A stretch of DNA of 64,000 nt from Patescibacteria group bacterium (lineage in GTDB: Bacteria > Patescibacteriota > Patescibacteriia > JBHPGJ01), in NCBI GenBank assembly GCA_042570545.1, contig JBHPGJ010000003.1, positions 8,214-72,213 on the forward strand, given 5' to 3'. This document shows, in pieces, positions 1-61,526 of the stretch (positions are counted from its first letter, which is position 1; every line of letters starts with the position of its first letter). The position numbers and the translations under genes are program-made. Under the pieces are notes generated by a model. It was not told where the DNA came from. It searched no databases and saw only the letters and a program-made list of their open reading frames with translations.

Positions 1-1812
1 CTGGCTGACCAGGCTGACCATACATAGCTTGACCGATCTTTTGGACTACAGTATTTAATTCATTAGTCGCCGAATCAATAGCAGCTTTATCATCACTATC
101 TTTCACCTTTTTTACCGCTTCAACTTTTTCTTGAATTTCTTTCTTAGTTTTATCATCTACTTTACTGCCGGCATCTTTTAGGGCTTTCTCGGTAGAATAA
201 ATCAAAGTATCGGCATTATTACGAGCATCGATCAGCTCCCGTTTTTTCTTATCCTCAGTAGCGTGGGCTTCGGCATCCTTTTTCATATTATTAACCTCAT
301 CTTCTGACAGGGCCGTTGAGGCTTGTATGGTAATCGTCTGCTCCTTACCAGTACCTTTGTCTTTGGCTTTGACATTGAGGATACCATTGGCATCGATATC
401 AAAGGTAACTTCGATTTGCGGCACACCGCGCGGAGCGGGCGGGATCCCCTCAAGCATGAAACGGCCTAAAGTTTTGTTATCATTGGCCATTTCCCGCTCA
501 CCTTGGAGTACGTGAATCTCTACTGAGGGCTGGTTGTCACCCGCCGTGGAGAATACTTGCTGTTTAGAGGTTGGAATAGTAGTATTGCGCTCAATCAATG
601 GAGTACGCACCCCACCCAACGTTTCTAAGCCCAAGGTCAACGGAGTAACATCAAGTAGTAAGACATCTTTAACATCACCTTGCAACACACCAGCCTGTAC
701 GGCGGCGCCCAGGGCTACTACTTCATCGGGATTGATGCCAACGTGCGGTTTTTTGCCAAAGAATTCTTCAACTTTTTTCTGGACTAGCGGCATTCGTGTC
801 TGTCCGCCTACTAGTAATACTTCATTTACATCTGACGGCTTCATACCAGCATCGTCTAAGGCTTTTTTAACCGGGTCAAAGGTCTTGTCGATCATATCAC
901 CGACTAGTTCTTCTAGCTTAGCTCTAGTTAGGGTCAATTGCATGTGTTTGGGACCATCATCATCAGTGGTGATAAAGGGCTGATTGATTTCTGTTTCCGC
1001 AGTAGTTGATAATTCGTGCTTAGCCTTCTCGGCTGCTTCTTTCAAACGCTGGAGAGCTAGATTGTCTTTAGACAAATCAATACCTTCCTGCTTTTTATAT
1101 TCATCTACTATCCAATCGATCAATACTTTATCCAGATCATCTCCGCCCAGATGAGTATTACCGTTGGTCGCTTTAACTTCGACGGTGTCTTCAGATACTT
1201 CAAGAATTGAAATATCAAATGTGCCACCGCCTAAATCATAGACAGCAATCTTTTCATCTTTTTTCTTGTTAAAGCCATAGGCTAGAGCGGCGGCGGTTGG
1301 TTCATTAATAATGCGTTTAACTTCAAAACCAGCTATCTTTCCGGCGTCTTTGGTAGCTTGACGCTGCGAGTCGTCAAAATAAGCCGGCACGGTGATAACA
1401 GCTTCTTTAATCTCTTCACCAAGTTTTTCCTCGGCATCCGCTTTTAATTTCTGTAATATCATAGCCGAAATTTCTTGCGGTGTATACTCTTTATCCGACA
1501 TTTTTACTTTTACTCCCTCACCCGCTTGATTGATGGTAAAAGGGAAAAGCTTGATATCACGCTGGACTTCATCATCCGAGTGACGTCGGCCGATCAAACG
1601 CTTGAGGGAAAACAAAGTGTTTTCAGCATTTGTTACGGCTTGCCGTTTAGCTAACAATCCAGCTAGACGCTCCCCTTTCTTATTGACGGCTACTATTGAA
1701 GGAGTTGTACGATTACCCTCTTTATTTTCTAAGATCTTAGGCTCACCACCTTCGATTATAGCCATAGCCGAGTTAGTTGTGCCTAGATCTATTCCTAATA
1801 TCTTACCCATAT
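1..1812 (-). CDS. dnaK: Molecular chaperone DnaK (Hsp70). N-terminus is complete and the gene runs off the window start.
   Basis: Reverse-strand translation from ATG at 1812 gives [22 protein letters not shown]...[12 protein letters not shown]...[11 protein letters not shown]...[15 protein letters not shown], the canonical Hsp70 motifs. The ORF is absent from the provided track only because it has no stop within the window. Confidence 0.95.
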
Positions 1813-1847: not shown

Positions 1848-2180
1848 TTATTTAATAAAATTATCGATAGCGTTTGGTTCAGTCATTATCTCGTGGATAT
1901 CCATTACATCATCATCAGTAACATCATCAGCGCCGTCTAAGCCGATAATTTCTTCAGCCGATAAGTCGGTAATAACACCAGAAGCTTTAAGACCAAGCGG
2001 ATTCATCGACAAGACGGATACCACTCCTGAGCCGCAGTGCGAGCACTGGATAAATGTTAAGACTTGCTGATCTTTTTCGCCCAGTACTCTGACATTCTGA
2101 AAATTATAGGCAGTACTGCACACCGGACATCGTCCGTTTAATCGCATATTGAAACTGTTTGGATTTTGAAAGCGTTGCAT
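1848..2180 (-). CDS. Small zinc-ribbon protein (CxxC...CxxC) with an acidic C-terminal tail, immediately upstream of dnaK
   Basis: ORF track: 110 aa. Motifs CPVCS and CSHCG are about 25 aa apart, followed by the D/E-rich tail DGADDVTDDDVMDIHEIM. The true start may be the internal MRLNGR. Confidence 0.4.
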   Translation of the reverse strand: MQRFQNPNSFNMRLNGRCPVCSTAYNFQNVRVLGEKDQQVLTFIQCSHCGSGVVSVLSMNPLGLKASGVITDLSAEEIIGLDGADDVTDDDVMDIHEIMTEPNAIDNFIK

Positions 2181-2275: not shown

Positions 2276-2701
2276 TTGCATTTGAAGATCGCCAACATAT
2301 CAGTTGTCCGCCCCAAGATACGCGTGAAGCTTTTGCTTTGCACCATGGCCATGATCATCCCTGGCCTCGCATTTCTCTACTTCCTCCGGTCTTCTGACCA
2401 TGCTGCCACCTTCATCTTTCACGGGTATCTGATCTGCCTTGCGGGTTACGTTTGCCTTCGGGCTAAGAAAATCACCGCTGAAAACACGTTGGACATACCC
2501 TGGTACGAAAGTACCTATCTCGTAGGAGGTTACATTGCCCTAGTGTTACTGATCATCAACCTGTTGCTGTCTGCAGCCAATCACACTTTGGGTTTTGCCC
2601 TGCTGATCCTGCTGGCCGATGTTTTCTATCTGGCCATCACCATGTTCACCATTTCCTACGCGTTCTATGCGCGTGAAGATCACTTAGCACGGGATACTTA
2701 A
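2276..2701 (+). CDS. Small polytopic membrane protein (about 4 TM) in a GC-rich island. The alternative start at ATG 2345 (MAMIIPGLAF) is more plausible.
   Basis: ORF track: 141 aa. Hydrophobic segments IIPGLAFLYF, YLICLAGYVCL, GGYIALVLLIINLLL and LLILLADVFYLAITMF. GC content is clearly higher than the flanks. Confidence 0.45.
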   Translation: MHLKIANISVVRPKIRVKLLLCTMAMIIPGLAFLYFLRSSDHAATFIFHGYLICLAGYVCLRAKKITAENTLDIPWYESTYLVGGYIALVLLIINLLLSAANHTLGFALLILLADVFYLAITMFTISYAFYAREDHLARDT

Positions 2702-2790: not shown

Positions 2791-2882
2791 GGGGCAGTCG
2801 CGCGGTTATGATTTTTAAACTGGCAATTTTAACCGTGGGACTGCCCCAAGTCTCAAATCATATAGAACAAGTTTGAGAGACT
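2791..2882. other. Two consecutive strong stem-loops between convergent genes, including a 17-bp imperfect stem
   Basis: The first pairs ggggcagtcgcgcggtt (2791-2807) with aaccgtgggactgcccc (2831-2847). The second pairs agtctcaaa (2849-2857) with tttgagagact (2872-2882). Neither is followed by a clean U-tract on either strand. Confidence 0.4.
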
Positions 2883-2888
2883 TGGGAG

Positions 2889-3299: not shown

Positions 3300-3300
3300 A

Positions 3301-3834: not shown

Positions 3835-3842
3835 TAATATTT

Positions 3843-4529
3843 TTATAATTTAGTTACTAATTGTTTGGAATAAATAAGTAGAGCGTGGTGATGCTGATAA
3901 TCCTGCCGGATGGGACCAAGAATGCCCATTAATCCGCGTTTGCTTTTGGTAGCTATAAAACCACATTGAACGCCAAAAGGATTTTCTTTACCAATAAATA
4001 CCTCTACCTGGTTATCTATCTTTTCAAACAGCTCTTCCACTACCTCGTCTAAATGATCTATAACATCAGACAGCTCATAAATTATTTCCTGTTGGGCAAA
4101 CTCTGGCTGACGGAATAGATTAGCAATGCCCGTGTAGAAATTATCATTAGGATTGAAGCTGAAGATCACCGTCTGCTTGGACATTATTGCCATTTCTTTG
4201 GCCATTTCTTTTATCGACTGATTGATCTCTGTCCCCCGTTTCAACGCGTCAGCTAATTGTTTTTCCATTGATTTTGCTAATGCCGCTTCCTTCATTCCAG
4301 AATCAAGATAGAATTTCCAGGCTTTTTCTGTCGGTAAACGGCCAGCCGAAGTATGCGGCTGATAAAGATAACCTTGTTTATCCAAATCCATCATTTCGTT
4401 GCGGATGGTAGCTGGAGAAACTTTAACGTTGTACTTATCAACAATCACAGATGAACCAACGGGCTGGGCTTCTCGGATATGTTCGCGAATAATAGTTGTT
4501 AAAAGCTCCTTTTTGCGGTCAGTTAGCAT
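3843..4529 (-). CDS. hrcA: Heat-inducible transcriptional repressor HrcA
   Basis: 228 aa. N-terminal winged helix (LLTTIIREHIREAQPVGSSVIV...SPATIRNEMMDLDKQGYL). A CIRCE operator lies immediately upstream, followed by grpE. Confidence 0.85.
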   Translation of the reverse strand: MLTDRKKELLTTIIREHIREAQPVGSSVIVDKYNVKVSPATIRNEMMDLDKQGYLYQPHTSAGRLPTEKAWKFYLDSGMKEAALAKSMEKQLADALKRGTEINQSIKEMAKEMAIMSKQTVIFSFNPNDNFYTGIANLFRQPEFAQQEIIYELSDVIDHLDEVVEELFEKIDNQVEVFIGKENPFGVQCGFIATKSKRGLMGILGPIRQDYQHHHALLIYSKQLVTKL

Positions 4530-5869: not shown

Positions 5870-6628
5870 ATGAGCACCAGTCGAGTGATTGGTCTGGTGG
5901 TGGCGCTAGTTACGGCCGCTGCCAATTGGTTGGTTTTTTACTGGGTAGCCGTCAAATTTGGTAGCCCGGCGCCTGAGTTCATCGCTTGGATCGTTCTCCT
6001 GTCGGTCGTACTGCATGAGATCGGCCACCTGATCGTACTGGAGGCTAACGGTATCAAGACCTACCTGGTTTTTCTCGTCATCCTCGGTGGTGCCATACCT
6101 GATCCCAAACATAAAGACAAATACCTTGGCCTACCGCATCACACCCTGGCCCAGATATACTTGGCCGGTGTTACCCTGAATCTACTGATGGTGCTGGGCT
6201 CAGTAGTACTGTACTGGCTGGGTGATATCTCAGCTCGAGAGCTTGGCCAGATCACCAACCTCAGCGGCATCATGATCCTCTTCAACCTCTTGCCCATCTG
6301 GATCTTCGACGGTGGACGGTTTGCTAAGATATTCTTTGACAGCTCGCCGGAGGACAAGGATACGGGTTACGTGATCAAATTCACCGCCATCATCGGCGTC
6401 GTCTTCTTCCTTCTGACCCTACTGACGGAGTACAGCTTCATCTTCTCACTGCTGCTGCTCTTCTGGGGGTTGCATTTCCGAGCCAATCACGACGATCCTA
6501 TGGGCAGCCACAGTAAGCAGGCCATGTCTAAGAAACAGCTCAAAGGCTGGGCCTACTACTACGCCGCCCTGATGATACTGGCCGCCTACTTTATGGCCTC
6601 AACTGATAAGTGGTACATCAGCGGCTGA
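5870..6628 (+). CDS. M50 (site-2 protease/SpoIVFB-like) family integral-membrane zinc metalloprotease, encoded on a GC-rich island
   Basis: 252 aa. HEIGH zinc-binding motif in a TM helix (LHEIGHLIVLE) and a second motif NLLPIWIFDGG (the M50 LDG motif). About 6 TM segments. Strong SD aaaggaggctaattATG. GC about 55% against about 38% flanks. Confidence 0.7.
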   Translation: MSTSRVIGLVVALVTAAANWLVFYWVAVKFGSPAPEFIAWIVLLSVVLHEIGHLIVLEANGIKTYLVFLVILGGAIPDPKHKDKYLGLPHHTLAQIYLAGVTLNLLMVLGSVVLYWLGDISARELGQITNLSGIMILFNLLPIWIFDGGRFAKIFFDSSPEDKDTGYVIKFTAIIGVVFFLLTLLTEYSFIFSLLLLFWGLHFRANHDDPMGSHSKQAMSKKQLKGWAYYYAALMILAAYFMASTDKWYISG

Positions 6629-6653
6629 ATAAATTTTGAAAGGAGGACGTACC

Positions 6654-6920
6654 ATGCGTGCACAACCAAAATACAGCAAAGAAGAGTTTGCCGCTATGGA
6701 GCCTCATAAGCATGTCATCGTCGACAGTGGAAATCGGACTTGGATAGTACTGATGAAGTACTCGCAAGGTGACGAGCCACCGTCGTTTCTGATGCGCTGC
6801 ACCGGCCAGAGAGCCCAGCGAATCACCTTGGACGATCAGAAAGGACTGATTGACGATGACGGTCTGCCAATACTCGAACTCAATCATCACACCGCCCGCA
6901 TCAAAGAGGTCGAGGATTAA
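6654..6920 (+). CDS. Small soluble protein of unknown function on the same GC-rich island. Start placed at ATG 6654, not the track start 6636.
   Basis: SD aaaggagga lies 7 nt before ATG 6654 (MRAQPKYSKEEFAAMEPHKHVIVDSG...). The track start at 6636 lies inside the SD. A terminator follows. Confidence 0.5.
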   Translation: MRAQPKYSKEEFAAMEPHKHVIVDSGNRTWIVLMKYSQGDEPPSFLMRCTGQRAQRITLDDQKGLIDDDGLPILELNHHTARIKEVED

Positions 6921-10772: not shown

Positions 10773-11114
10773 TTACTCGATTAAAATAGTACTGCCAACA
10801 AGATTAGTCGGCCAAAGTAATATCTTATCTTCTTTCTTAATCCAACTGCTAAAATTATCGGACTTAGTGAATTGTACAAAGCTAGTTGCCAGCAGTGCAA
10901 TCACCGCGCCGACGACAATAGTTATTGCGGTTTTTTGGTATGGACCAGCCAAAACAAGGCAATGCTGCAGACAATTATTGTCTATGCCACAAGCACCAGC
11001 TTGACAGGTAGCTCCAGAATTTACGCTAGCATGTATTGTATTGTGTGGTACAAAGATAAAAACTACGCTTATTACTAATATGGCAAATATTTGTACCGCT
11101 GCTAGCTTTTTCAT
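10773..11114 (-). CDS. Small Cys-rich two-TM protein (CQAGACGIDNNCLQHC between the helices)
   Basis: 113 aa: TM1, then a 4-Cys cluster, then TM2. Sits directly upstream of the DUF1573 and DsbA genes on the same strand. Confidence 0.45.
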   Translation of the reverse strand: MKKLAAVQIFAILVISVVFIFVPHNTIHASVNSGATCQAGACGIDNNCLQHCLVLAGPYQKTAITIVVGAVIALLATSFVQFTKSDNFSSWIKKEDKILLWPTNLVGSTILIE

Positions 11115-12129: not shown

Positions 12130-12208
12130 GTGTAAATTATAACTACTTATTGCTATTAATGCAAAATAAAGCTGCCACGTCTGGATGACATGGCAACTGT
12201 AATGATTG

Positions 12209-12784
12209 CTAACGGATCAGCCGGTGATGAGTAAACTTCTCGCGGTCGTTGCGCAGCTGAAGATACAGGTATTGGCCCGGTGGCAACCGGCCGGGATAGC
12301 TAACGACGTATCGTCCACTGCTCATATATTGACCATTCCATGACCAAGTGCGGTTACTGCCGACCACGCCAGCTAAGTAGAGTGATACCTGACCGGGTCG
12401 GTTGATGCTGAAATGGATCAATGATTGACCGGTGCTGATGTCGAAACTGACCGACATGGTGGTCTGTGGCGGACGATAGCGGTAACCTTGGTCGTTATAG
12501 ATCGTCCAGCGGAACGTTCCCCAGCTACGGTGGTGCCGAATCGGGCCTCGATGGTAACGGGGACGTAGTGGCCGGACTATATAGCGATAGCCCACTCGGC
12601 CATTACGATAGACCCGGGGTTGCTCATAGCAGTACTGATCCCGGAACGTGGTTTGCAGGCTGCGAAAGCCTACGCTTTGAGCGTTGGCATCATCGGCCAA
12701 GAAAATACTGGCCACTATGCCGATCAATATGGCAACCGTTCCACCGACTATGACTATTAGCAAAATGAGCGCGAATTTCTTCAC
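12209..12784 (-). CDS. Secreted or anchored Arg/Tyr-rich basic protein on a GC-rich island
   Basis: 191 aa with an N-terminal TM/signal. Repetitive YRxxR and RPxR pattern. GC about 53%. Confidence 0.45.
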   Translation of the reverse strand: MKKFALILLIVIVGGTVAILIGIVASIFLADDANAQSVGFRSLQTTFRDQYCYEQPRVYRNGRVGYRYIVRPLRPRYHRGPIRHHRSWGTFRWTIYNDQGYRYRPPQTTMSVSFDISTGQSLIHFSINRPGQVSLYLAGVVGSNRTWSWNGQYMSSGRYVVSYPGRLPPGQYLYLQLRNDREKFTHHRLIR

Positions 12785-12883
12785 GGTCTCCCTCCTTTAT
12801 GTGCTTAGAGCACGAAAACCGTGTTAACTGCTTATGGCTTACACTAAAACGCTGCTATTGTCAATGCTAGCAGTAGTTATTTA

Positions 12884-13270
12884 TTATTGATCATGATGGT
12901 CGTGTTCATCAGCCTCGGCTTCTTCTTTGGTTTGGTGAACAGTACCATCTTTATGTTCGGGTGGTGAGTAAATAGAATATAGTTTCAGTGGATTGTCAGT
13001 CGAGGTATTTATTATATTGTGATTAGCGCCGGCTGGAACTACTACGGCTGAGTCGTCTTTTATTTCTGTCACCTCACCATCTAAGACGGCCTGACCTTGA
13101 CCGGCTTCAATCCTGATAAATTGATCTAGTTGATGGATCTCTTCGCCAATTTCCTCTTTGGGCTTAAGACTCATCACCACCAGCTGGCTGTGCGAAGCGG
13201 TAAACAACACTTTCCTAAAATTTTCATTTTTAATTGTTTCTTCTTCAATGTTAGTGATATATCCGGACAT
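12884..13270 (-). CDS. Cupin-domain protein (paralog of 62047..62418)
   Basis: 128 aa. LVVMSLKPKEEIGEEIH...G.G...DGE matches the cupin two-motif pattern. About 40% identical to the 62047..62418 product (LVAMSLKPGEDTGEQTH). Confidence 0.65.
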   Translation of the reverse strand: MSGYITNIEEETIKNENFRKVLFTASHSQLVVMSLKPKEEIGEEIHQLDQFIRIEAGQGQAVLDGEVTEIKDDSAVVVPAGANHNIINTSTDNPLKLYSIYSPPEHKDGTVHQTKEEAEADEHDHHDQ

Positions 13271-13271
13271 A

Positions 13272-13754
13272 TTATTCTTTCTCCTTATTAATCTTAAGAA
13301 TATTTCTAGCGCTCAGTCCAGCCACCAGGGCGATTAGGAAGATTGATGCGCCGATAAAGCAAGGTGTAGTGTAGGGATTATTAACCAGCAATCCAGAACA
13401 ACCGATGACTTCATCTGTTTCAGCTGAATAATATTTCCATAATTCATAAATATTAACTGACCAGGCAAAAATTACACTGGCCACAAGCAGCCATATTAGT
13501 TTTTTCTGAGAGGAATATTGATGATCCGATGACTTGTTATAGATTACAGCTGACCAAATAAAGGCTACTAGAAAGGCAAAAGCGCCATAAAAGCATGGCG
13601 TTATCACCGGATTTGGATAGGTACAATCATCTACTTTAAAAATGGTACCTTCTTCGGTAATGAACCGATCAAAGTCCTGATAAACAGTAAACCAAGCGAA
13701 GGCCGTACCGGCCAGTAATACTATCATTTGAATTATTAAAATTGAATTTCTCAT
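13272..13754 (-). CDS. 4-TM membrane protein built from an internal duplication, each repeat carrying a Cys pair in the predicted outward loop
   Basis: 160 aa. Repeat 1 is TM, then DDCTYPNPVITPCFYGAFAFLVAF. Repeat 2 is TM, then GCSGLLVNNPYTTPCFIGASIFLIAL. Basic cytoplasmic loop and tail (QKK; KINKEKE). Confidence 0.55.
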   Translation of the reverse strand: MRNSILIIQMIVLLAGTAFAWFTVYQDFDRFITEEGTIFKVDDCTYPNPVITPCFYGAFAFLVAFIWSAVIYNKSSDHQYSSQKKLIWLLVASVIFAWSVNIYELWKYYSAETDEVIGCSGLLVNNPYTTPCFIGASIFLIALVAGLSARNILKINKEKE

Positions 13755-13918
13755 AAACAGCTCAAAATATGAGTTTCAAGAACTTCTTCACTTAATAATA
13801 ATGCTTTTACATAAAATATTAAAGGGGTATATTTGTTGACACTTATTATATATTATGATTTGATGTTCACAAGTCGCAGTATAAATTTCAGTCTTCAATA
13901 TCCTTTAGGAGGTGGGCC

Positions 13919-14347
13919 ATGTCTGAGAAATGGACGCATTTTGTTGACAAGGATGAGAATGTCGGCACTGATGGCGGAGTAGCCGTTCTCGAAGTCAGTG
14001 ACGAAGTAAGGTCAGACCCCGAAGTTACCGGTATTTTCTTTTCTGGAGAACCCGAACACGGCGTGGAGCTGATCGAGGGCGACTGTGCTCCCGGCGATGT
14101 TGATGTCGACGAACTGATCACCCGACTGATGCCGCACGAGGACGAAATGCTGGAGCTGAACTACGGCGATCCGATTCAGCTCACCGGCACCCTGCTCGGT
14201 ATTGTACAATACGATCGTATCGGCCCGGATTGGTCGGCCATCGAGTACCCCGACAATCGCTTCCTACACCTGCGGCTGACCGATGGTACCGAGGCTTTAG
14301 TGCCAATCACGTTCATTGATCCTGACACCCTACGGGTAGTCATCTGA
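13919..14347 (+). CDS. Highly acidic small protein on a GC-rich island
   Basis: 142 aa. Strong SD aggaggtgggccATG. GC about 55%. A convergent terminator hairpin lies downstream (about 14370-14400). Confidence 0.5.
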   Translation: MSEKWTHFVDKDENVGTDGGVAVLEVSDEVRSDPEVTGIFFSGEPEHGVELIEGDCAPGDVDVDELITRLMPHEDEMLELNYGDPIQLTGTLLGIVQYDRIGPDWSAIEYPDNRFLHLRLTDGTEALVPITFIDPDTLRVVI

Positions 14348-14416
14348 ACGTGTTAGTTCTGCAGCACATAAAAACTCCCCTAACAGGCCATCAGCTTGGA
14401 AGGGGTTTTATTTTAT

Positions 14417-17400
14417 CTATTCACTTATTTCCTCTCTGGGAATATATAAATCTTTTGACACACAAGTTCCATTCTCCTGACATCTCTTATTAGACGAACA
14501 GCCACAAACCTGGCAGTCGTTAATTAACTCATTATCCTCACAGAATAATGGCTTTTTTGACGAACATTCATTGATATAGGTCTTATCCGAACACTGCATT
14601 TTGAAATTACCAGTATGACGATTGTCATGCGAGAAGAGTGGCCAATCATTAATAGAGGGGATTTCCGGCACTCCTAAATCCCACACATAAATAGAACCAC
14701 GTTGCTTAGACCTATCATTAATAAAATCTTTATCGCGATTAGAGGTGGCTACGAGCTCCAATAAATTATCACCGTCAAGATCCACAATCATTGCTGGCGC
14801 GAGAGAATAAGACTCTGTGAGCTTTGGAAAGTCGGCTAATAGAGTGCCATCAAAATTCCAGGCAAAAACACCGCCACCATCATAAATACTACTATAATCA
14901 GTGGTGATAATCTCTGGTTCGCCGTCATTGTCTATATCTGCAGTAACGCTGCCGTATACATCAACCCAGGATGGGTTTTGTGGCCAGTCCTTGGCTATTG
15001 ATCCATCATGCTCAATCACAAATGTTTCAATATTATCATTACTAATTACCACTTCCAGGGTACCGTCTCCTTCAAAATCCGTTAGAGCAGGTGAAGAAAA
15101 GAAGTTGCCACCGCCTTGCAGGGCTGGCCAGCCTGTTAAATCTTGTCCATTTTTATCTAAGGCATAAACACCAAGGTCGTCCATCGTTCCAAATATTATA
15201 TCCGCGTTACCATCATTATCAATATCCCCAACTGCTGGTGAGTTAAATATATTTCCATCAATATCCACTGGCCAGCCGTTTACATATGAACAGTCAGAAT
15301 TAAGAACATTAATTCTTCCTGCAGATCTTTGATAGCCCACTTCTCTTAAGCTGATAATTACAATTTCTAACTCCTGATCTTCATCAAAGTTACCAACTGC
15401 TGGAGTGCCATATTCAACAAACCAATATTGATATGTAAAAGTATCAGTTAAGGTACATGTGGAGACAGGTGATGCATCATTATTAAGAATCTTAATTATA
15501 TTATCTTCTCCTTGTTGATCATGAATAATAACCTCAAGTTGCCCGTCTAGATCCAGATCCGCCATAGCCAGGCCTGTAATCTCTGATTCAAAATCCACTG
15601 GCCATCCTGGCACTTCTGATCCGTCTAAATTATAAGCATGAATTTGAGACGGTGAGGGTGAAAATCCCCAATTTTGAAAATGAACAACTATTTCATCTTT
15701 GCTATCATTATCAATGTCACCGACTACTGGTTTGTGCATATTTCCTCCAAGTAGTTTATCCCCGCTTACCCCGACATCAATCAAACCAATTTCATTTCCT
15801 GAAGCATTGTATATATGTAATTGGGGGGGGCAGTCACCAGCGTAAAATACTATCTCATTTTTACCATCGCCGTTAAAATCACCGACATTACCATCAAGAT
15901 CACCAGCCCATGCTTTACAATCAGCCAGTTCATGATCAATTCGCACAGGCCAACCCATTTTAAAATTATCAAAATATAATACTACCGTCTCCTCAGAATC
16001 GGAGTATATATCATAATTAACCATTAGTCTCAGCTCATATAAACCCTTGCTACCAATAACAGACGTATCCCAATATCCAATAATACTTTCATCAGTGTCA
16101 TCTAGCGTTAATCCAACATTGGACCAGTCGCCATCACTTATACGCCACTCAAGCACTGAATTTATTATATGATGCCCTTTTAAATCGCCTTTTATAACCA
16201 ATTCGTCGCCTATTCTATATATATCGTAATTCAACGGCTCATTAATTTTTACATTACTCACAAATATTGGAATAGTTTGTACAGACGATAAACCGCTCCC
16301 GTTAAAGACTTCGAGCTTCAAAGATATAGTATTATCCGGTGCGACCAAAGTATCAAGGCTGCCTAATGTCCCTCTATCAACCTCTAAAGTACCACTATTT
16401 TCTAGAGTGATGCCCTCGGTATACCACTGAGTTACTTCCTCTGGTTCGCCAACACCCCATGAAAGAGTATAATGGTCAAAGGTTGCTGTTTCCGAGGTGC
16501 CTTTTTTTGCCACACCGCTAATATTGATAGAATCTGTAACTTCATCATAATAAGTCGGGATCATAATACCTGCCAAGGGTTCATCAAATGTTGGCATTTT
16601 AATCGGAGTTTCGGGATCCCCAATCACATTTAGCTCATAAGCAACAAATCGTATATAAGGATCAGACAAATTACCAAAATTCTTAAACTTAGACTGGTAA
16701 TTTGCTTTTGCAATATTAGTAATGCCATCTACTATCATCGTATCAACAAACTGCCGATGAAACCTTTGCGAAGGCCCGTCTGTGGAATCAAATCTACCCC
16801 ACCCAAATCTGGAATTTCCAACAAAAGCAAATGCTCCGTTGTCATCCAGCACAAAATGCTCTGCAATAGAATCAGATTCTGTATAATCTCCCTCGTAATT
16901 CCAGTTGTCAAATGAGGCTGGATAGCATCCCTGAGAATATACCAAGAAATAATCTGTATTGGTCAGTTGATCCAAATCAGTATCTCCGCTGTCACCACAA
17001 TATGATCCTGGCGAATTAAACGGCGCATGACATAATTTCATATTATAAAGCGTACTGGAATGGCCTAAGTGGTTGATAAAATTAACGCCCTGATTCATGA
17101 TTTCGATTAATTCTGTATTAGACCATGAATAAACTTCAGAATCATAAATAGGATCAATTAAATAGTCTTCGTATAATCCATTAGTATTGTAACCATCATG
17201 GTAACCGCCCCATTTGATCTGCTCCATTGTTTCTGTAGCATATTCAGCCACTGTACCAAATCCCAAATGCTCCCCAACTGTTAATGCTTTTTTTAAGTAG
17301 TCAGCATCTGATTGCTCATAAGCAATTGTTTTACTGACGAAGGTCTGAACTTCAGCTGATGAATCAACTGGCGCTCTGCCTATATAAACATCGCCCATCA

Positions 17401-18880
17401 TTGGCAACTCACCGCCGCCAATTCCATCTCCTGGCTCGGCAAATTTGCCATCGCCGTCATAATCAAAATTAGAATAAACCGTACCATAATATATATCACT
17501 TGGGATACCGGCGCTATCGCTTAAACCAAAATCATAAAAAAGTCTTGCTGGAATAATCATATCACCGCTTTCACCACCTACATCTCCACCATCACCATCA
17601 CCACCCAACAAAACGTATTCCGTTGTTGAATTCGCCCAGACATCTCTGATAAAATTCCTGATTCTGGAAGCGTTATCATCATGTCCGGCCACATGGCAAT
17701 AATCATCCCCGAAATAAAAGTTCAATGATCTCATGTAAGCACTGTTGCATTCATAGTCCGGATTAGAGAGAATTGATTCAACCGTAACAACGGTAGAGCT
17801 GATGGGATTATTCGGTCGGCTTGCTTTCCAGTCAGCCAGGGGCTGAAAATCACTAACAAATTCTTCGCTGGTGATAATGACATAATTAAAATCAGACTGC
17901 GCAGTTTGGGAGCTTTCATCACTGCCTGATTCAGTAATTAATTTTTCATAGGCAGGCTCATCAATAGACTTTCCTTTTTTATAAGTATTTAATTTATCAT
18001 AATTATCCACCCTCACTTTTACTTCTTCCTCATCAACGGGCAGCTTTCTAAAAGAGGCCGGCACTTCATATCCTGCAACCTCCTTTGTTTTTACCTCAAA
18101 AGAAATATCCGGATAATATTCAACTATTCTGTCTTTCGGAAAGTACTTAACCGGAAAAATGTTTAAGATCAATATTGAGTAACCCCGAAACTCCTGTATT
18201 GAAGCAATTTCATAATCTTTTACCGGGAATGGCTTGCTGGATTCATAAATCTCCGGATCAGGGGCAGTTCTTACAAATAACTCTGTTTTTAGATTCCCTT
18301 CATCATCCAATAAATACTTTGGCACCTCTCCTCCAAATTTTTTCTTGACAAGTTCAATGTCTGGAGACGGAACAAATTCATCATAAAAAATTAATTCATC
18401 TGAATGTGTGGTACTGACAATCTCATTAATAGCAGGTAGATACGACAGAGGAATCGGCTGTTGAACTGGTTCAATATTAACATTTTTGAACACTTGTTTA
18501 CTTTTTTTACTTATACTAACTGAGTCAACGTCATGTCCTTGCGGTAGCAGGATCCTTTTTGTCATAACTGGCAAACTGGGCTCTCCTAGATTTCCGATTG
18601 GATTCGTTCCTTCAATAGTAACTGAATGAAATCCAAAATCCTTATTATCAATCCTTGGTGTTGGGGCCGATACTTGCAAGGAAAATGTGGGTTTAACAAT
18701 TGATTTAAAAATTCCAATGTCTTTGCCAAATAAACCATAGCTTGCTGCCGCATAAGCAAAAAATCCAACAGAAATTACTAACAGTAAAGCTGTAACAATT
18801 AACGTTTTAGCATTAACATAAATTCCAATATCTGATTTTACTTCGGTTGATATTGATTCTGTTATTTTTTGAGAAGTCAT
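14417..18880 (-). CDS. Giant surface protein: N-terminal signal anchor, propeptide, C25 (gingipain-like) cysteine peptidase domain, a seven-bladed FG-GAP beta-propeller region, and a C-terminal Cys-rich (EGF-like) module
   Basis: 1487 aa. Catalytic His in INHLGHSS and catalytic Cys in VYSQGCYPASF (C25 His/Cys dyad context), plus HVAGHDDNA, YVLLGGDGDGGD and GNSRFGWG. Seven FG-GAP-like Ca-binding repeats: GDFNGDGKNEIV, GDIDNDSKDEIV, ADLDLDGQLEVI, GDIDNDGNADII, TDFEGDGTLEVV, ADIDNDGEPEII and VDLDGDNLLELV. The C-terminus has 10 Cys in about 60 aa. Confidence 0.8.
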   Translation of the reverse strand: MTSQKITESISTEVKSDIGIYVNAKTLIVTALLLVISVGFFAYAAASYGLFGKDIGIFKSIVKPTFSLQVSAPTPRIDNKDFGFHSVTIEGTNPIGNLGEPSLPVMTKRILLPQGHDVDSVSISKKSKQVFKNVNIEPVQQPIPLSYLPAINEIVSTTHSDELIFYDEFVPSPDIELVKKKFGGEVPKYLLDDEGNLKTELFVRTAPDPEIYESSKPFPVKDYEIASIQEFRGYSILILNIFPVKYFPKDRIVEYYPDISFEVKTKEVAGYEVPASFRKLPVDEEEVKVRVDNYDKLNTYKKGKSIDEPAYEKLITESGSDESSQTAQSDFNYVIITSEEFVSDFQPLADWKASRPNNPISSTVVTVESILSNPDYECNSAYMRSLNFYFGDDYCHVAGHDDNASRIRNFIRDVWANSTTEYVLLGGDGDGGDVGGESGDMIIPARLFYDFGLSDSAGIPSDIYYGTVYSNFDYDGDGKFAEPGDGIGGGELPMMGDVYIGRAPVDSSAEVQTFVSKTIAYEQSDADYLKKALTVGEHLGFGTVAEYATETMEQIKWGGYHDGYNTNGLYEDYLIDPIYDSEVYSWSNTELIEIMNQGVNFINHLGHSSTLYNMKLCHAPFNSPGSYCGDSGDTDLDQLTNTDYFLVYSQGCYPASFDNWNYEGDYTESDSIAEHFVLDDNGAFAFVGNSRFGWGRFDSTDGPSQRFHRQFVDTMIVDGITNIAKANYQSKFKNFGNLSDPYIRFVAYELNVIGDPETPIKMPTFDEPLAGIMIPTYYDEVTDSINISGVAKKGTSETATFDHYTLSWGVGEPEEVTQWYTEGITLENSGTLEVDRGTLGSLDTLVAPDNTISLKLEVFNGSGLSSVQTIPIFVSNVKINEPLNYDIYRIGDELVIKGDLKGHHIINSVLEWRISDGDWSNVGLTLDDTDESIIGYWDTSVIGSKGLYELRLMVNYDIYSDSEETVVLYFDNFKMGWPVRIDHELADCKAWAGDLDGNVGDFNGDGKNEIVFYAGDCPPQLHIYNASGNEIGLIDVGVSGDKLLGGNMHKPVVGDIDNDSKDEIVVHFQNWGFSPSPSQIHAYNLDGSEVPGWPVDFESEITGLAMADLDLDGQLEVIIHDQQGEDNIIKILNNDASPVSTCTLTDTFTYQYWFVEYGTPAVGNFDEDQELEIVIISLREVGYQRSAGRINVLNSDCSYVNGWPVDIDGNIFNSPAVGDIDNDGNADIIFGTMDDLGVYALDKNGQDLTGWPALQGGGNFFSSPALTDFEGDGTLEVVISNDNIETFVIEHDGSIAKDWPQNPSWVDVYGSVTADIDNDGEPEIITTDYSSIYDGGGVFAWNFDGTLLADFPKLTESYSLAPAMIVDLDGDNLLELVATSNRDKDFINDRSKQRGSIYVWDLGVPEIPSINDWPLFSHDNRHTGNFKMQCSDKTYINECSSKKPLFCEDNELINDCQVCGCSSNKRCQENGTCVSKDLYIPREEISE

Positions 18881-19069: not shown

Positions 19070-19237
19070 CTATTCACAAGGCTCGGTTGGTTCCGGCGCT
19101 GATGGCACGCCGTGCTTGACCCACCGGCCATCCTGACACAGCCAGGTGTCCTCATCCCCGGCAATAAAGCGGATGCCCAGGATAACCACAACAACTATCA
19201 GTACGATCATCACAATTTTTAAGATTTTATTCTTCAT
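19070..19237 (-). CDS. Small (55 aa) membrane peptide, GC-rich, start 6 nt after the SRAP gene stop
   Basis: MKNKILKIVMIVLIVVVVILGIRFIAGDEDTWLCQDGRWVKHGVPSAPEPTEPCE. Below the 60-aa ORF-track cutoff. No SD, but possibly coupled. GC about 55%. Confidence 0.3.
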   Translation of the reverse strand: MKNKILKIVMIVLIVVVVILGIRFIAGDEDTWLCQDGRWVKHGVPSAPEPTEPCE

Positions 19238-19955: not shown

Positions 19956-20378
19956 TCAAAAACGGGAAGCTGTCTTCCCGTTTTTATCCTGTTGCTTCAG
20001 TCCATGTCGGATAGCCGTGATTATACCGGTGGCTAGCGATACTAACCAAATAATCAGGGCCTTATATCCATACTGTCGGATATAATTAGTACACTTGATT
20101 ATCCGCCATGAGCCGATATGAGAGGCAAAAATCAGATTATGCCCAGCCGCTAGCCCGACTGTTGTCATGGCCAACAAACCAAGCCACCCGACAAAGCCGT
20201 GAAAACTAGTTGGCCCGGCGGCCAACAGGCCCATCTTTATACTAGCCAGCCAGTCAAGGGCCAGGCCGATTACCAAAACCTGAAAATATCGGCGACGGTA
20301 CCAGTGACTAAGTCCGTAAAGACCGTAGCAATATAGCACCAGAACGATTATGACAAGAACGACTGCGTCGTACATCAC
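19956..20378 (-). CDS. Polytopic membrane protein, unknown function
   Basis: 140 aa with about 4 TM. Confidence 0.45.
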   Translation of the reverse strand: MMYDAVVLVIIVLVLYCYGLYGLSHWYRRRYFQVLVIGLALDWLASIKMGLLAAGPTSFHGFVGWLGLLAMTTVGLAAGHNLIFASHIGSWRIIKCTNYIRQYGYKALIIWLVSLATGIITAIRHGLKQQDKNGKTASRF

Positions 20379-22154: not shown

Positions 22155-22386
22155 TGAGATGTCCTTAAATAATACCCTTAAAGTATAAAAAATATCCGGG
22201 AATAGAGCAAGTTGACAATTATGCCGTTCATTAATACATTTACATTTATCGATGTGCCGCATCGTAAGATGTTGTGTCTCGCTAAGATGCCTCAGACACA
22301 CCAAGTGGGGCACAACATCACCGCCAGGCTCTCCTCTTTCTGTTTCCTTGAGGGCCTGGTTTATCTTGTTTATAGATGTAATAGTG

Positions 22387-24650: not shown

Positions 24651-25145
24651 TTATGATAATAAAGCACTTAAACCTATAGTGGTTATTGTAACAATTATTG
24701 AAGCAATTAACACACCCACTGAAATTAAAGCCAAGGCTAGTTTCCTTGGTACACCAAACACAAAGGCGGCTACTGTCCCCGTCCAGCCACCAGTGATCGG
24801 CAATGGTATAGCCACAAAGGCTATCAAGGCCAATGCACCCCAGCGTTCAAAGCGAGATATATTTTTACGTCGGGTCCTGGTAAACAGCCAGTGGAAGAAT
24901 TTATCCATCATCCGGCTATGTCGTCGCAACCAACGTGATATTGGCTCGAGTAGCCATATTAAAAATACCACCGGAATTAAATTGCCAACTATAGACAAAA
25001 TAACCACATCTAACCAAGGTAAAGAAAACACTTCTAACCCTATGGGAATAGCTGCCCTCAGCTCGGCAATCGGTAAAGTGGCGATTAACAATACGGCTAA
25101 TTCGTGAGGAATATTTTGAAATAAATTGGCATAATCAATGCCCAT
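24651..25145 (-). CDS. Small integral membrane protein (COG2426-like; putative small exporter family)
   Basis: 164 aa, 4 TM. PIAELRAAIPIGL motif. Confidence 0.4.
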   Translation of the reverse strand: MGIDYANLFQNIPHELAVLLIATLPIAELRAAIPIGLEVFSLPWLDVVILSIVGNLIPVVFLIWLLEPISRWLRRHSRMMDKFFHWLFTRTRRKNISRFERWGALALIAFVAIPLPITGGWTGTVAAFVFGVPRKLALALISVGVLIASIIVTITTIGLSALLS

Positions 25146-27867: not shown

Positions 27868-29270
27868 TACTTCTTCTTTTTAATCTCGAGATGAAGTTCC
27901 GCCAATTGTTCGGGGGTGACTTCGGTTGGTGCTCCCATCAAGGGATCACTGACGTCATTACTGAGTGGGAAGGCGATAACCTCGCGAATATTCTTCTCCC
28001 CAGCAAATATCGATACCAATCGGTCAATACCTGGAGCAATACCGCCATGAGGTGGTACACCATACGTAAAAGCGGTTAATAAATGTTCAAAATCTTTTTT
28101 ATGTTTTTCGGTAAAACCGATACAATCAAAAACCTTGCTTTGTATCTCGGGATCATGTATACGAATGCTACCACCGCCAACCTCTTGTCCATTTAGAACC
28201 ATATCATGCTGCTGGCCGCGAGCCTGACCGGGATCAGTATCCAGTAAAGGTATATCCTCAGTTTTTGGCGCCGTAAACATATGATGACTGGGTGCCCACT
28301 TCTCACCGGCGCCGTAAAAATAATCATCGGCCGATTGTTTCGTGAACAGCGGAAAATCAGTAATCCAGGCAAAGGCTAGCTCGTTTGGATCTTTCTTATC
28401 CTTTCTCAAGTCAGGGGAATCGGTACTATATTTATCCATCGCTTCTTTATAGGTCAGTCGGGGCCAGGGTTGGGTGGTAATTTTTTTATCTGGGAAAAGT
28501 TCTTTGACTAAACTTGAAAAAAGTTTTTCTGTGATTTGTAATATATCATCTTGTTCGACAAAACTCATTTCCAAATCCAATTGATAAAACTCTCCCGGTG
28601 ACCGATCGGCCCGCGCATCTTCATCGCGAAAGCAAGGAGCAATCTGATAATATCTTTCAAAACCGGCTACCATCAATAACTGCTTATACTGCTGGGGACT
28701 TTGTGGTAAGGCAAAAAATTTACCAGGATGTACCCGTGATGGCACCAAATAATCCCGTGCCCCCTCGGGAGTTGATTTTGTTAGTATCGGAGTTTGAATC
28801 TCAACAAAATCATTATTATTAAGATATTCACGGATATAGCGAATAACACTGGCCCGTACTCTCAGGTTGCGAGCCATCCGCTTGTGACGCAAATCTAGAT
28901 AACGATATTTTAAGCGTAAATCATCACTAGCTTGCCGATCTTCATTAACTATTTCAAAGGGAGGAGTTTTGGCCCGGCTTAATATTACTAACTCGGTTGC
29001 CGAAATCTCAACCTGTCCGGTAGACACATCTTTATTCACATTTTTAGATTGGCGTTCTACCACCTGGCCAGTTACTTGAATAACAAATTCTGGTCTAAGT
29101 TTTTGGGCTTCTTTAATCGGAGCATCAAACACTACTTGAACTAAACCAGATCGATCACGCAGATCAATAAATACGATTTGTCCCATCCGCCTGACTCGAT
29201 GCACCCAGCCGGCTAGATTAACTGTCTTATCTACTAATTTAGTTGTTTGGCTGGTTAATATCCTGTTCAT
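27867..29270 (-). CDS. aspS: Aspartate--tRNA ligase, short bacterial-type (no GAD insertion domain)
   Basis: 467 aa. N-terminal OB fold (NLAGWVHRVRRMGQIVFIDLRDRSG), class II motif 2 CFRDEDARADRSPGEFYQLDLEMSF (compare E. coli AspRS [23 protein letters not shown]), and motif 3 GGIAPGIDRLV. Confidence 0.85.
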   Translation of the reverse strand: MNRILTSQTTKLVDKTVNLAGWVHRVRRMGQIVFIDLRDRSGLVQVVFDAPIKEAQKLRPEFVIQVTGQVVERQSKNVNKDVSTGQVEISATELVILSRAKTPPFEIVNEDRQASDDLRLKYRYLDLRHKRMARNLRVRASVIRYIREYLNNNDFVEIQTPILTKSTPEGARDYLVPSRVHPGKFFALPQSPQQYKQLLMVAGFERYYQIAPCFRDEDARADRSPGEFYQLDLEMSFVEQDDILQITEKLFSSLVKELFPDKKITTQPWPRLTYKEAMDKYSTDSPDLRKDKKDPNELAFAWITDFPLFTKQSADDYFYGAGEKWAPSHHMFTAPKTEDIPLLDTDPGQARGQQHDMVLNGQEVGGGSIRIHDPEIQSKVFDCIGFTEKHKKDFEHLLTAFTYGVPPHGGIAPGIDRLVSIFAGEKNIREVIAFPLSNDVSDPLMGAPTEVTPEQLAELHLEIKKKK

Positions 29271-29715
29271 TTGTTATTGGTTCCAGATTTAAAAATAATT
29301 CTTGAGTAGAAAATAAATTAACAGCAATTAGACCGCTCCATTCTTCGGTATTTTCCGGCTGTATCGTATATTGGCCATGTGGCAATTTAATTACTGCCGT
29401 GCCGACAGAATTTGTTCTTACGGTAGTTGATATCAAATTTCGACTGATAGGTTGTCCATATTCCTCAATCAATAAATTCTCGTTGGCTACCGCCGTTAAA
29501 TCACCTGCCGACCTGACCCTGACAACTAATTCATATTGAGCCAGTGGATTGGTGACTGAATCTTCGGTCGGCGAAGAAGAAAGTAAATTAATATAATAAA
29601 CTGCGTAATAACCGATACCGGTTAGTAATATCAATGACAATACAACCAAAGCTATGCGCAGAATAACAATATTTGTAGATAAATCTGGTTCTATTAGCGG
29701 TTCGGGTTTAACCAT
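29239..29715 (-). CDS. Membrane-anchored hypothetical protein. Likely start at MVKPEPL (29715), and it overlaps the aspS start by 32 nt.
   Basis: The track ORF 29239..29790 overlaps asnS by 72 nt, whereas the internal ATG removes that overlap. Single TM (IVILRIALVVLSLILLTGIGYYAVYYI). Confidence 0.4.
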   Translation of the reverse strand: MVKPEPLIEPDLSTNIVILRIALVVLSLILLTGIGYYAVYYINLLSSSPTEDSVTNPLAQYELVVRVRSAGDLTAVANENLLIEEYGQPISRNLISTTVRTNSVGTAVIKLPHGQYTIQPENTEEWSGLIAVNLFSTQELFLNLEPITNEQDINQPNN

Positions 29716-29717
29716 GG

Positions 29718-31010
29718 TTATGGACGTAAACGATTCAGCATCCGAGGGAAGGGAATAGTTTCTCTGATATGCGTAATCTTGCCCAGCCAAGCGACTACTC
29801 TTTCTAACCCCACGCCAAATCCAGAATGTGGAAATGTACCGTACTTACGCAAATCAAGATACCATTCATATTCTTTCTGGGGCAGTTTGAATTCCCTTAA
29901 TTTCTTAACTAACAGATTATAATCGCTAATTCGCTCTGAGCCACCAATTATTTCACCATAGCCCTCGGGGGCGATCAGATCGGCATTAAGAACTAGTTTT
30001 TCATTCTCGGGATCAGGTTGCATATAAAAGGCTTTTATAGCGGCCGGATACTTGGTGATAAATACGGGCTGATCATATTCCTGACTGATTGTAGTTTCAT
30101 CTTCAGCGCCTAGGTCACTACCCCATTTAATATTGGAGCCTTTCTGCTGTAAAGTCTTAATTGCTTCATCATAGGTCAAGCGCGGAAAAGGAGTTCTAAT
30201 TTTTTTCAAAGATTCTGGATCGCGTTCTAGTATTTTTAATTCATCCAGCGATTCATCTAATACACTTTTTATAACCGAAACGATGAGATTTTCTTGAATT
30301 TGTAAATTTTCTTCATGTTCGACAAAAGCCGCTTCCGCATCAAGCATCCAAAACTCGGCTAAGTGTCGTCGAGTCTTTGATTTCTCGGCTCGAAATGTGG
30401 GTCCAAAATCATATACCCTGCCCAGAGCTGCTGCTGTGGCTTCGATATAAAGCTGTCCCGTCTGGGCCAAATATGCGGTTTCACCGTGAAACTCGGTTTT
30501 AAATAAGGTGGTCGTCCCTTCAGCAGCAGTAGGAGTGAGAATTGGTGAATCGGTTAATACAAAACCATTTTCTTTCATGTATGATCTCAGGGCCCAGACG
30601 ATCTGGTCACGCAGCTTCAAGGCTGCTCTCTGCCGACTTGAACGAAGCCAAATATGCCGGTGGTCCATTAGAAACTGGGTACCGTGGGCTTTCTTGGCAA
30701 TGGGATAATCATCAGCGATCTGTATAATTTCAACATTCTTTCCAGTTAACTCAAATCCAGAAGGCGATCTCTTTTCCTGTTTTACTTCTCCAGTAATTAT
30801 GACCGATGATTCAATGGTTATTTTTTCCAGTGTTTTAAAAGTATCATCACTGACAGCTTTTTGTTCAACTACGACTTGTATCACTCCTGTACCATCTCTG
30901 ATTTGCAGAAAAAATATTTTCCCACTTGAACGGATGTTAAATACCCAGCCTTTTAAATGAATGGTCTGTCCGATATATTTACCGATATCTTTTATATATG
31001 CTACTGACAT
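29718..31010 (-). CDS. asnS: Asparagine--tRNA ligase
   Basis: 430 aa. Motif 2 FRAEKSKTRRHLAEFWMLDAE matches the AsnRS signature (compare E. coli RHLAEFWMLEPE). Motif 3 GFGVGLERVV. Confidence 0.85.
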   Translation of the reverse strand: MSVAYIKDIGKYIGQTIHLKGWVFNIRSSGKIFFLQIRDGTGVIQVVVEQKAVSDDTFKTLEKITIESSVIITGEVKQEKRSPSGFELTGKNVEIIQIADDYPIAKKAHGTQFLMDHRHIWLRSSRQRAALKLRDQIVWALRSYMKENGFVLTDSPILTPTAAEGTTTLFKTEFHGETAYLAQTGQLYIEATAAALGRVYDFGPTFRAEKSKTRRHLAEFWMLDAEAAFVEHEENLQIQENLIVSVIKSVLDESLDELKILERDPESLKKIRTPFPRLTYDEAIKTLQQKGSNIKWGSDLGAEDETTISQEYDQPVFITKYPAAIKAFYMQPDPENEKLVLNADLIAPEGYGEIIGGSERISDYNLLVKKLREFKLPQKEYEWYLDLRKYGTFPHSGFGVGLERVVAWLGKITHIRETIPFPRMLNRLRP

Positions 31011-34443: not shown

Positions 34444-34788
34444 TCACTGGCTTGCATGGTGGGGGTCCTTTCCGTCAGAGGTCGGCTTTGAAATTACCTC
34501 TATAGTGAGGGGGTCAAGGTAATCTGACAGCGAACTGCCGAAAACGTCAGCCAAGCCGTTAAGCCGGGCGTAAAGCAATTGCCGTATTTGCCGGCGAGTG
34601 GGTTTGTCAAAATTGCCCTCCAGAGCAATATGACATCCTTGACGACAGTTTTCGTTTACCTTGCCGCATATAGTCGGGGCCAGACCGAGCAAATCCTGCA
34701 GAACAAAACGAGCGATGAAAAAGACAATGTTGCCGTAAATGCTTCTGATCAGCTGGCTTTGCCCAGTAACGGTATATTCAATATCCAT
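34444..34788 (-). CDS. Small hypothetical protein on a GC-rich island (about 115 aa from ATG 34788; a TTG four codons upstream is also possible)
   Basis: SD aggaggtga upstream. CGKVNENCRQGCH Cys/His cluster. GC about 52%. A terminator hairpin (aagcagagc...gctctgctt) lies downstream at 34386-34426. Confidence 0.4.
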   Translation of the reverse strand: MDIEYTVTGQSQLIRSIYGNIVFFIARFVLQDLLGLAPTICGKVNENCRQGCHIALEGNFDKPTRRQIRQLLYARLNGLADVFGSSLSDYLDPLTIEVISKPTSDGKDPHHASQ

Positions 34789-34955
34789 TTTCTTGATCAA
34801 CGAAATCACCTCCTTAATCAGGACTGTAAAAACTAGTGAGCACCAATTTATAAATGAACAGCAAAACGTTTGTTTTTGCTGTTCATTTTTGAGCTTAAGC
34901 ATTATAACAAAACGGCAAAATTAATACCAATTCAACATACATAGAGAGGTAGAAT

Positions 34956-60890: not shown

Positions 60891-61526
60891 TTATATCCAA
60901 CCAAAAATTCTAAATACTAAATTAAACACCCATTGGAACATGCCTGACAGTATTCCGATATTTCCTATGTAATCAATAATAATTATAAATAATAGCAGTT
61001 GTGGCCCCAGACGTTCTAAGGTCATACGGAAATTATTAGCCGGACCCAGGAAAGTAAATAATACTTTAGAACCATCAAGAGGATAAATTGGAATCAAATT
61101 AAAGACCATCAACACAATATTGATCAGCACCAGAGTAAATAAAAACTGAATCAATAAATTATCAAATGGCAGCCGCCCGCTAAAAAATGATAAGGCCAGG
61201 CCGAATATAATAATCGATATTAAATTCATAGCTGGTCCAGCCAGGCCAACAAGCATTGATCCGTATTTCTTATTTTTAAGGTTATAGGGATTGTAAGGAG
61301 TTGGTTTGCCCCAACCAAAAAAACCAGTAAGTAGTATCACTATGGTCCCCATAAAGTCCAAATGAGATAAGGGATTTAATGTCAATCGTCCCATACTTTT
61401 AGCCGTATTATCTCCTTGAAGATAGCCAGCCAGGGCATGGCCAAACTCATGAATAGTTATTCCATAGACTAGCGCCAGAAATCTTATGAGAAATAAGGCG
61501 GGATCAGAAAATAAAAGGTTAAACAT
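60891..61526 (-). CDS. M50 (site-2 protease-like) family membrane metalloprotease, native-composition copy
   Basis: 211 aa. HEFGH in TM helix 1 (GITIHEFGHALAG) and NLIPIYPLDGSKV. Confidence 0.7.
   Translation of the reverse strand: MFNLLFSDPALFLIRFLALVYGITIHEFGHALAGYLQGDNTAKSMGRLTLNPLSHLDFMGTIVILLTGFFGWGKPTPYNPYNLKNKKYGSMLVGLAGPAMNLISIIIFGLALSFFSGRLPFDNLLIQFLFTLVLINIVLMVFNLIPIYPLDGSKVLFTFLGPANNFRMTLERLGPQLLLFIIIIDYIGNIGILSGMFQWVFNLVFRIFGWI

Follow-up and report, generated by a model that had tools for sequence, protein, structure and literature searches.

Short GC-rich genes in a Patescibacteria genome: probable one-by-one gains from a higher-GC gene pool

Why should a genome of modest GC content carry single genes that seem to belong to another genome? 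The question is raised by a stretch of 64,000 nucleotides (the window) on the 91,040-bp contig JBHPGJ010000003.1, from the metagenome-assembled genome (MAG) of a Patescibacteria group bacterium (assembly GCA_042570545.1). Two open reading frames (ORFs) in it, both annotated by NCBI as hypothetical protein, stand out from the DNA around them. They are referred to below as the focal ORFs:

12209..12784, minus strand: coding sequence of 191 amino acids (aa), ACFL04_01000, from the ORF list; GC 0.538, GC content at third codon positions (GC3) 0.605, z = 7.4
13919..14347, plus strand: coding sequence of 142 aa, ACFL04_01015, from the ORF list; GC 0.545, GC3 0.610, z = 6.9

A sequence-only reading of this DNA had described both as high-GC islands and suggested repeated small-scale acquisition from a high-GC donor. 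The islands are confirmed here, and our answer on their origin is similar: the focal ORFs and their kin are probably single genes that reached this genome repeatedly by horizontal transfer, out of a gene pool of higher GC. The composition fits this suggestion and so does the near-orphan status of the products, but neither a donor nor a best-hit phylum was found for the focal genes.

How unusual are the two genes? The GC content of the window is 0.409, with a standard deviation of 0.045 over 300-nt sliding windows, and the two highest peaks of the whole window (0.567 and 0.58) are the focal ORFs, so the composition is not uniform. For each gene, the observed GC3 was then compared with the GC3 predicted from its own amino-acid sequence under native codon usage, which gives the z values listed. 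The predicted values are 0.359 for 12209..12784 and 0.347 for 13919..14347, while the remaining 68 native genes all have |z| <= 3.4. The GC excess of the focal genes is mostly synonymous, and about a quarter of it is due to amino-acid composition (expected GC 0.44 versus a window mean of 0.41). By the same test five genes are strong islands, namely the two focal ones, 2276..2701, 5870..6628 and 6636..6920, and two more are intermediate. Those other than the focal genes are:

2276..2701, plus strand: 141-aa membrane protein with several hydrophobic segments; GC3 0.63, z = 7.2
5870..6920, plus strand: two-gene unit; GC3 0.70 and 0.56, z = 11.6 and 4.0
34444..34800, minus strand: intermediate member, 118-aa orphan; GC3 ~0.53, z = 4.7
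19956..20378, minus strand: intermediate member, 140-aa membrane protein; GC3 0.52, z = 3.7

The islands at 2276..2701, 5870..6920 and 34444..34800 had been proposed before and prove to be genuine outliers. The S10/spc ribosomal region had been described as free of islands, and indeed the per-gene test finds no GC3 outlier there. For the earlier count of at least seven islands, five strong plus two intermediate members is a better description. The gene at 19956..20378 had been missed, and the supposed gene island at 22247-22371 proves to be intergenic or leader DNA next to tRNA-Glu. The two intermediates may be older, partly ameliorated acquisitions.

Do the strong islands share more than a high GC3? 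They form a second codon-usage class. The codon fractions in the five strong islands versus native genes are 0.63/0.21 for ATC, 0.68/0.23 for TAC, 0.62/0.19 for TTC, 0.62/0.33 for ACC, 0.44/0.17 for CTG, 0.04/0.34 for TTA and 0.02/0.19 for AGA. The preference is thus for C-ending codons and CTG, and the frequency of C at third positions is 0.38-0.42 in the islands versus 0.19 in the background. The correlation of relative synonymous codon usage is 0.35-0.54 between islands and 0.4-0.68 between native genes, but about 0-0.2 between islands and native genes. The difference is also seen beyond codon choice. The GC-normalised dinucleotide distance delta* (x1000) of the islands to native DNA is 140, a value exceeded by 0 of 500 length-matched native sets (49 +/- 16). 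The pair 5870 and 6636 differs from the pair 12209 and 13919 by 119.5, like the native-native null of 107 +/- 35, while each pair lies 171-177 away from native DNA. In addition, Arg is preferred to Lys in the focal proteins, where R/(K+R) is 0.88 and 0.75 versus a median of 0.38. This common signature suggests one recurrent source. Could the class simply be the optimal codons of the genome? Expression-linked codon bias was considered and rejected, because the highly expressed native genes (ribosomal proteins, EF-Tu, DnaK) keep a low, native GC3; the island class is therefore not the optimal-codon class.

A minority class of this kind has a known counterpart. In E. coli, Medigue et al. in 1991 reportedly identified the 'class III' codon-usage genes as horizontally transferred. 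Like that class, the islands are set apart by codon usage from both the bulk and the highly expressed genes. In most bacteria the atypical class and the orphan genes have a higher AT content than the genome as a whole; the islands here differ in being GC-rich and in favouring C-ending codons.

The islands also share a layout. Each has a TTGACA-like -35 element in AT-rich upstream DNA, a Shine-Dalgarno (SD) sequence of the TAAAGGAGG type, and a downstream hairpin followed by a T-tract. The signals of the two focal genes are:

12836..12864, minus strand: putative promoter of the 191-aa gene, TTGACA-17 nt-TAAGCC, read from the sequence; tentative, with a weak -10
12791..12795, minus strand: SD GGAGG, 6 nt 5' of the GTG start of the 191-aa gene, read from the sequence
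12170..12198, minus strand: intrinsic terminator of the 191-aa gene, 12-bp stem then TTATTTT, from the terminator scan
13806..13859, plus strand: putative AT-rich promoter region of the 142-aa gene, consensus matches only
13907..13912, plus strand: SD AGGAGG, 6 nt 5' of the ATG of the 142-aa gene, read from the sequence
14377..14414, unstranded: bidirectional terminator-like hairpin CCCCT-AA-CAGGC...GCTTG-GA-AGGGG with T-tract, from sequence and fold

The promoter words of the 142-aa gene are TTTACA-16-TATATT at 13806-13833 and TTGACA at 13836-13841, again as consensus matches only. A consensus promoter scan did not call the site at 12836..12864, and the 191-aa gene may alternatively be transcribed by read-through from the upstream cupin gene. 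The SD and the convergent terminator ascribed earlier to the 142-aa gene are both there, and the hairpin at 14377-14414 is common to this gene and the convergent C25 peptidase gene. Judged from such signals, the islands appear to be self-contained, moron-like expression units in cellular DNA.

How far does the comparison with morons go? Phage morons, in the concept of Hendrix and Juhala, are defined within prophage or phage genomes. The likeness is that each consists of one ORF equipped with a promoter and a factor-independent terminator of its own, differs from its neighbours in composition and lies between unrelated genes. The difference is that the islands lie in cellular housekeeping and accessory DNA (hrcA-grpE-dnaK, GAPDH, TIM, ScpAB), and they have no phage context in the form of phage genes, significant PHROG matches, or relatives on viral contigs or phage records. 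Integron gene cassettes were considered too and rejected: the units are scattered and have promoter-like sites, with no attC-like motif and no integrase in the window. When the island borders were compared, no common motif and no direct or inverted repeat was found beyond the generic promoter, SD and terminator words.

What do the two focal genes encode? Both are real protein-coding genes and not structured RNAs, as judged from ORF length, canonical SDs, the pattern of GC1, GC2 and GC3, and a homolog of the acidic protein with a synonymous-only N-terminus. Against composition-matched shuffles, the stop-free length has p = 0.0013 for the 191-aa ORF and p = 0.007 for the 142-aa ORF. The 191-aa product had been read as a secreted, basic, Arg/Tyr-rich protein. 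Its isoelectric point (pI) is 10.7, it has 23 Arg, 15 Tyr and a charge of +18, and residues 1-35 are hydrophobic, beginning with MKK and followed by ANA-Q at 33-36. From its sequence, the N-terminus would be either a type-II membrane anchor or a signal peptide. Residues 36-105 are basic and Arg/Tyr-rich with a net charge of +12, and beyond them lies a beta-rich C-terminal part. The 'YRxxR periodicity' claimed for this protein was not borne out, with one exact match only (YRNGR), loose Arg every 2-4 residues at 57-86, and an autocorrelation that is not significant. AlphaFold 2 (AF2) run on the single sequence predicts an all-beta fold with low confidence (pLDDT 49), and Foldseek with this model finds nothing at E <= 0.001. 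The best PDB matches by phmmer are only Ig V domains at E ~0.25. A beta sandwich like FlgD-Ig or the C-terminal domain of the type IX secretion system (T9SS), of the PF13860/PF18962 type, was considered for residues ~105-191 but is unsupported, as there is no Pfam match at E <= 10. With low confidence, we offer the guess that this exported or anchored basic protein, with a probably all-beta ectodomain, binds anionic envelope polymers at the cell surface.

The 142-aa protein is very acidic, as had been noted, with a pI of 4.05 and a net charge of -24. It has no hydrophobic segment and is cytoplasmic. AF2 on the single sequence gives no usable model (pLDDT 33). Neither focal protein has a significant match in Pfam, NCBIfam, PHROGs, PADLOC or PDB sequences. 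Both are likewise without a match in tblastn against phage and plasmid records and in viral-contig scans, including one with a two-sequence alignment. In a word-indexed search of 5.8 billion proteins, each found only itself. An exhaustive phmmer search with the acidic protein, over 1.84 billion representatives of ~15 billion proteins, found one true homolog, P0003 (144 aa, 34-38% identity over the full length). A second candidate, P0004, was rejected as a low-complexity false match, being a beta-helix repeat protein. The N-terminal decapeptide MSEKWTHFVD is identical in the acidic protein and P0003, with 6 synonymous and 0 non-synonymous differences over the 10 codons. The P0003 gene, on a Logan contig (L081; SRR22559874, 1055 bp), is again a stand-alone one: it has an SD of its own, lies between two terminator-like hairpins and is adjoined by a convergent ABC-2 permease gene. 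Judging by these searches, both focal products appear to be near-orphans. The strong acidity, the cytoplasmic location and the decapeptide under purifying selection lead us to a tentative suggestion, also of low confidence, that a basic protein or a nucleic-acid-binding surface is the target for which the 142-aa protein acts as binding partner or mimic. Small acidic proteins such as Ocr, ArdA and some Acr proteins act as DNA mimics or in anti-defence. The 142-aa protein is like them in being small, strongly acidic, stand-alone and apparently mobile; it differs in that no similarity to them in sequence or structure could be shown (PADLOC, PHROG and PDB negative, AF2 model as above), and the comparison is a lead only.

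How might such genes have entered the genome? Horizontal acquisition is inferred from the composition, the orphan status and the autonomous gene architecture together. Accessory genes would have been taken up one by one by a Patescibacteria genome of ~41% GC from a source pool of ~50-56% GC. This source estimate follows from the island GC3 of 0.6-0.7 and the general relation of GC3 to genomic GC. A plausible route would be DNA uptake via natural competence followed by illegitimate recombination, which would set each unit (promoter-like site, strong SD, one or two ORFs, intrinsic terminator) between native genes. There are at least 5 such genes within 12 kb. Natural competence has been demonstrated for Saccharibacteria (PMC10633639), and MAGs of Patescibacteria have been found to hold numerous islands and genes that were transferred individually, amounting to as much as 13% of the genome and mostly passed from Patescibacteria to Patescibacteria (PMC12455944). 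The islands of the latter study resemble ours in the host phylum and in consisting of single genes or tiny blocks of atypical composition, with many hypothetical or cell-envelope proteins. The difference is that transfers were identified there from phylogeny and donor-recipient pairs (MetaCHIP) or by IslandViewer, and here from composition only. Single-gene transfer is already known in Patescibacteria, and the present case is an ordinary one.

Several results weigh against transfer. For none of the island genes did the searches turn up a donor lineage or a close homolog, and the case for transfer is one of composition. Nor does P0003, the one homolog of the acidic protein, point to a high-GC donor, since its contig has 45-47% GC and the P0003 gene is no outlier on it. 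Comparison of the dinucleotide signature with 74 unrelated loci singled out no taxon. Neither an integrase or transposase nor repeats or target-site duplications are seen in the island flanks. The relatives of the cupin, SRAP, C25 and M50-like genes led to no syntenic sister genome: the closest SRAP relatives (68% and 57% identity) are without synteny, as are the cupin relatives, and a metagenome scan gave no match for the M50-like protein and no close relative of the C25 peptidase protein. Finally, bacterial orphan genes are usually AT-rich and not GC-rich, as Daubin and Ochman reportedly found in 2004.

Then what else could have produced the islands? They might be native, lineage-specific genes whose atypical codons are kept by selection or by a local mutational regime, for instance for expression tuning or for mRNA stability or structure. 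Such an origin would account for a GC shift that is limited to the ORFs, with native-looking, AT-rich promoters and terminators around them, and for the fact that most island genes encode membrane or secreted proteins; the empty donor search agrees with it as well. However, it is hard to see why the native membrane proteins nearby (13272..13754, 10773..11114 and 24651..25145) should then have native GC3, and the ribosomal proteins, EF-Tu and DnaK are without the bias. The deviation also extends past the third codon position to dinucleotide signature and amino-acid usage, and the mRNA folding z-scores are inside the native range. We consider this origin rather unlikely. GC-rich islands in AT-rich genomes are often RNAs, which raises the thought that these are structured non-coding RNA genes with incidental ORFs. 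When the flanks are included, the transcript of the 191-aa gene does fold strongly (z = -6.0), and there are long antisense ORFs, which are typical for GC-rich DNA. The folding is largely the doing of the terminator, because z drops to -2.46 (sense) for the ORF alone once the terminator is excluded; the acidic ORF gives -1.31, and both are within the native-gene background of -0.8 +/- 1.5. In addition, the focal regions have no Rfam match even at E <= 1, the GC1/GC2/GC3 pattern is of coding type, SDs are present and the ORF lengths are significant, and the acidic gene is conserved at the protein level, its first 10 codons changing only synonymously. The RNA explanation is thus extremely improbable.

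Could the islands instead be an artefact of assembly or binning, with short pieces of a co-occurring higher-GC organism spliced into the contig? The sequence does come from a MAG, and the composition changes abruptly. Yet the boundaries match gene starts and stops with SDs and terminators intact, the flanks are continuous with native genes, and the junctions have no repeats. Five separate chimeric inserts of 0.3-1.1 kb, each exactly one transcription unit, would be very unlikely, and we give the artefact hardly any credence. It is only slightly easier to believe that the two focal proteins, one basic and exported, the other acidic and cytoplasmic, were acquired together because they work as a pair, for example as toxin with immunity protein or as effector with chaperone. 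Their charges are opposite (+18 and -24), their foreign composition is shared and they are 1.1 kb apart, but the genes are read from opposite strands, each with a promoter and a terminator of its own, and two genes of native composition (the cupin and a membrane protein) stand in between. Nor does the 1-kb contig of the sole acidic homolog hold a neighbour resembling the 191-aa protein, and a Sec-exported protein would not need a cytoplasmic immunity partner.

If repeated horizontal gain is the right explanation, the window offers a clean small-scale example of reduced Patescibacteria genomes gaining single, autonomously expressed genes, most of them for envelope proteins, and even the conserved hrcA-grpE-dnaK cluster has taken one in. 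The common signature of the islands could help to name a host or mobile-element partner if matching sequences get sampled, and the focal proteins join the orphans that are candidate host-interaction factors. Current understanding is unchanged by these findings. Could there be more to it? The islands might be the trace of an unrecognised process, in which an epibiotic, competent Patescibacterium recurrently captures ready-to-express genes from one higher-GC partner, which could be its host or else a resident mobile element. Envelope and surface proteins for host interaction would then be over-represented among the captured genes. A new basic surface protein would be one of the products, and another would belong to a new acidic family whose decapeptide might be a targeting or interaction signal. 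This larger scenario we regard as improbable.

The other island genes are of several kinds. The gene at 2276..2701, which has no family match in Pfam, NCBIfam, PHROG or PADLOC, sits within the heat-shock cluster, whose gene order is hrcA-grpE-hsp20-[2276..2701]-g1848-dnaK. The cluster (1810-4529) is broken by this plus-strand gene together with a 110-aa orphan at 1848..2180. In the two-gene unit, 5870..6628 encodes a 252-aa membrane protein like site-2 proteases (S2P), with a Pfam match to Peptidase_M50, and 6636..6920 encodes a 94-aa soluble orphan. The M50-like protein matches S2P genes of rhizobial plasmids at only ~33% identity, and its only likeness to the native M50 gene at 60891..61526 is the active-site motif. 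For the intermediate 34444..34800, the true start is probably the TTG at 34800 after AAGGAGG; the longest ORF, 34444..34902 on the minus strand, would use an ATG that overlaps a TATAAT box. The other intermediate, 19956..20378, has a native-like dinucleotide signature. Its sense RNA folds with z = -4.8 to -6.0 versus shuffles, and a 12-bp terminator hairpin (AAAAACGGGAAG...CTTCCCGTTTTT) lies within the 3' end of the ORF, ahead of the stop codon. Against Rfam this region has no match at the gathering threshold and weak, chance-level ones only. At 19070-19237 on the minus strand, another of the islands proposed before, between the C25 peptidase and SRAP genes, a 55-aa ORF encodes a membrane-anchored protein (MKNKILKIVMIVLIVVVVILGIRFIAGDEDTWLCQDGRWVKHGVPSAPEPTEPCE) with a GC-rich C-terminal tail that holds two Cys. 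Small proteins of this type may also be present in other ultra-small bacteria.

The neighbourhood is otherwise an ordinary cellular one. In the early part of the window, Pfam annotates dnaK (minus strand, running past the window start), hsp20, grpE and hrcA. Further on come T4SS-pilin-like, DsbA-like, DUF1573, GIDE-domain, cupin and C25-peptidase/FG-GAP proteins, and SRAP, a GT4 glycosyltransferase, GAPDH, TIM, ScpAB, two class-II aminoacyl-tRNA synthetases, a P-type ATPase, DnaB and RecR, followed by the S10/spc ribosomal block. This annotation shows no integrase, transposase or phage gene in the window. The C25 gene next to the acidic gene (14417-18880, minus strand) encodes a 1487-aa surface protein with a gingipain-like C25 peptidase domain, FG-GAP repeats and a Cys-rich C-terminus. 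The cupin gene between the focal ORFs (12884-13270, minus strand) has a paralog at 62047-62418 (minus strand), the two being 32% identical. It is 57-75% identical to genes of Patescibacteria, Chlamydiae, Planctomycetes, Acidobacteria, Proteobacteria and one Nanoarchaeota MAG, and since its near relatives span so many phyla it seems to be a widely exchanged gene, yet its codon usage is fully native. A slight increase of GC at 250-725 is dnaK itself, and the Ser/Thr/Pro-rich ORF 534..983 (plus strand, 149 aa, GC2 0.61) is a spurious antisense ORF to dnaK (1-1810 of the window, minus strand). The two synthetase genes, at 27867-29270 and 29718-31010 on the minus strand, are neighbouring paralogs of the class-II Asp/Asn/Lys type, and an overlapping, unannotated ORF of 183 aa lies between them at 29239..29790.

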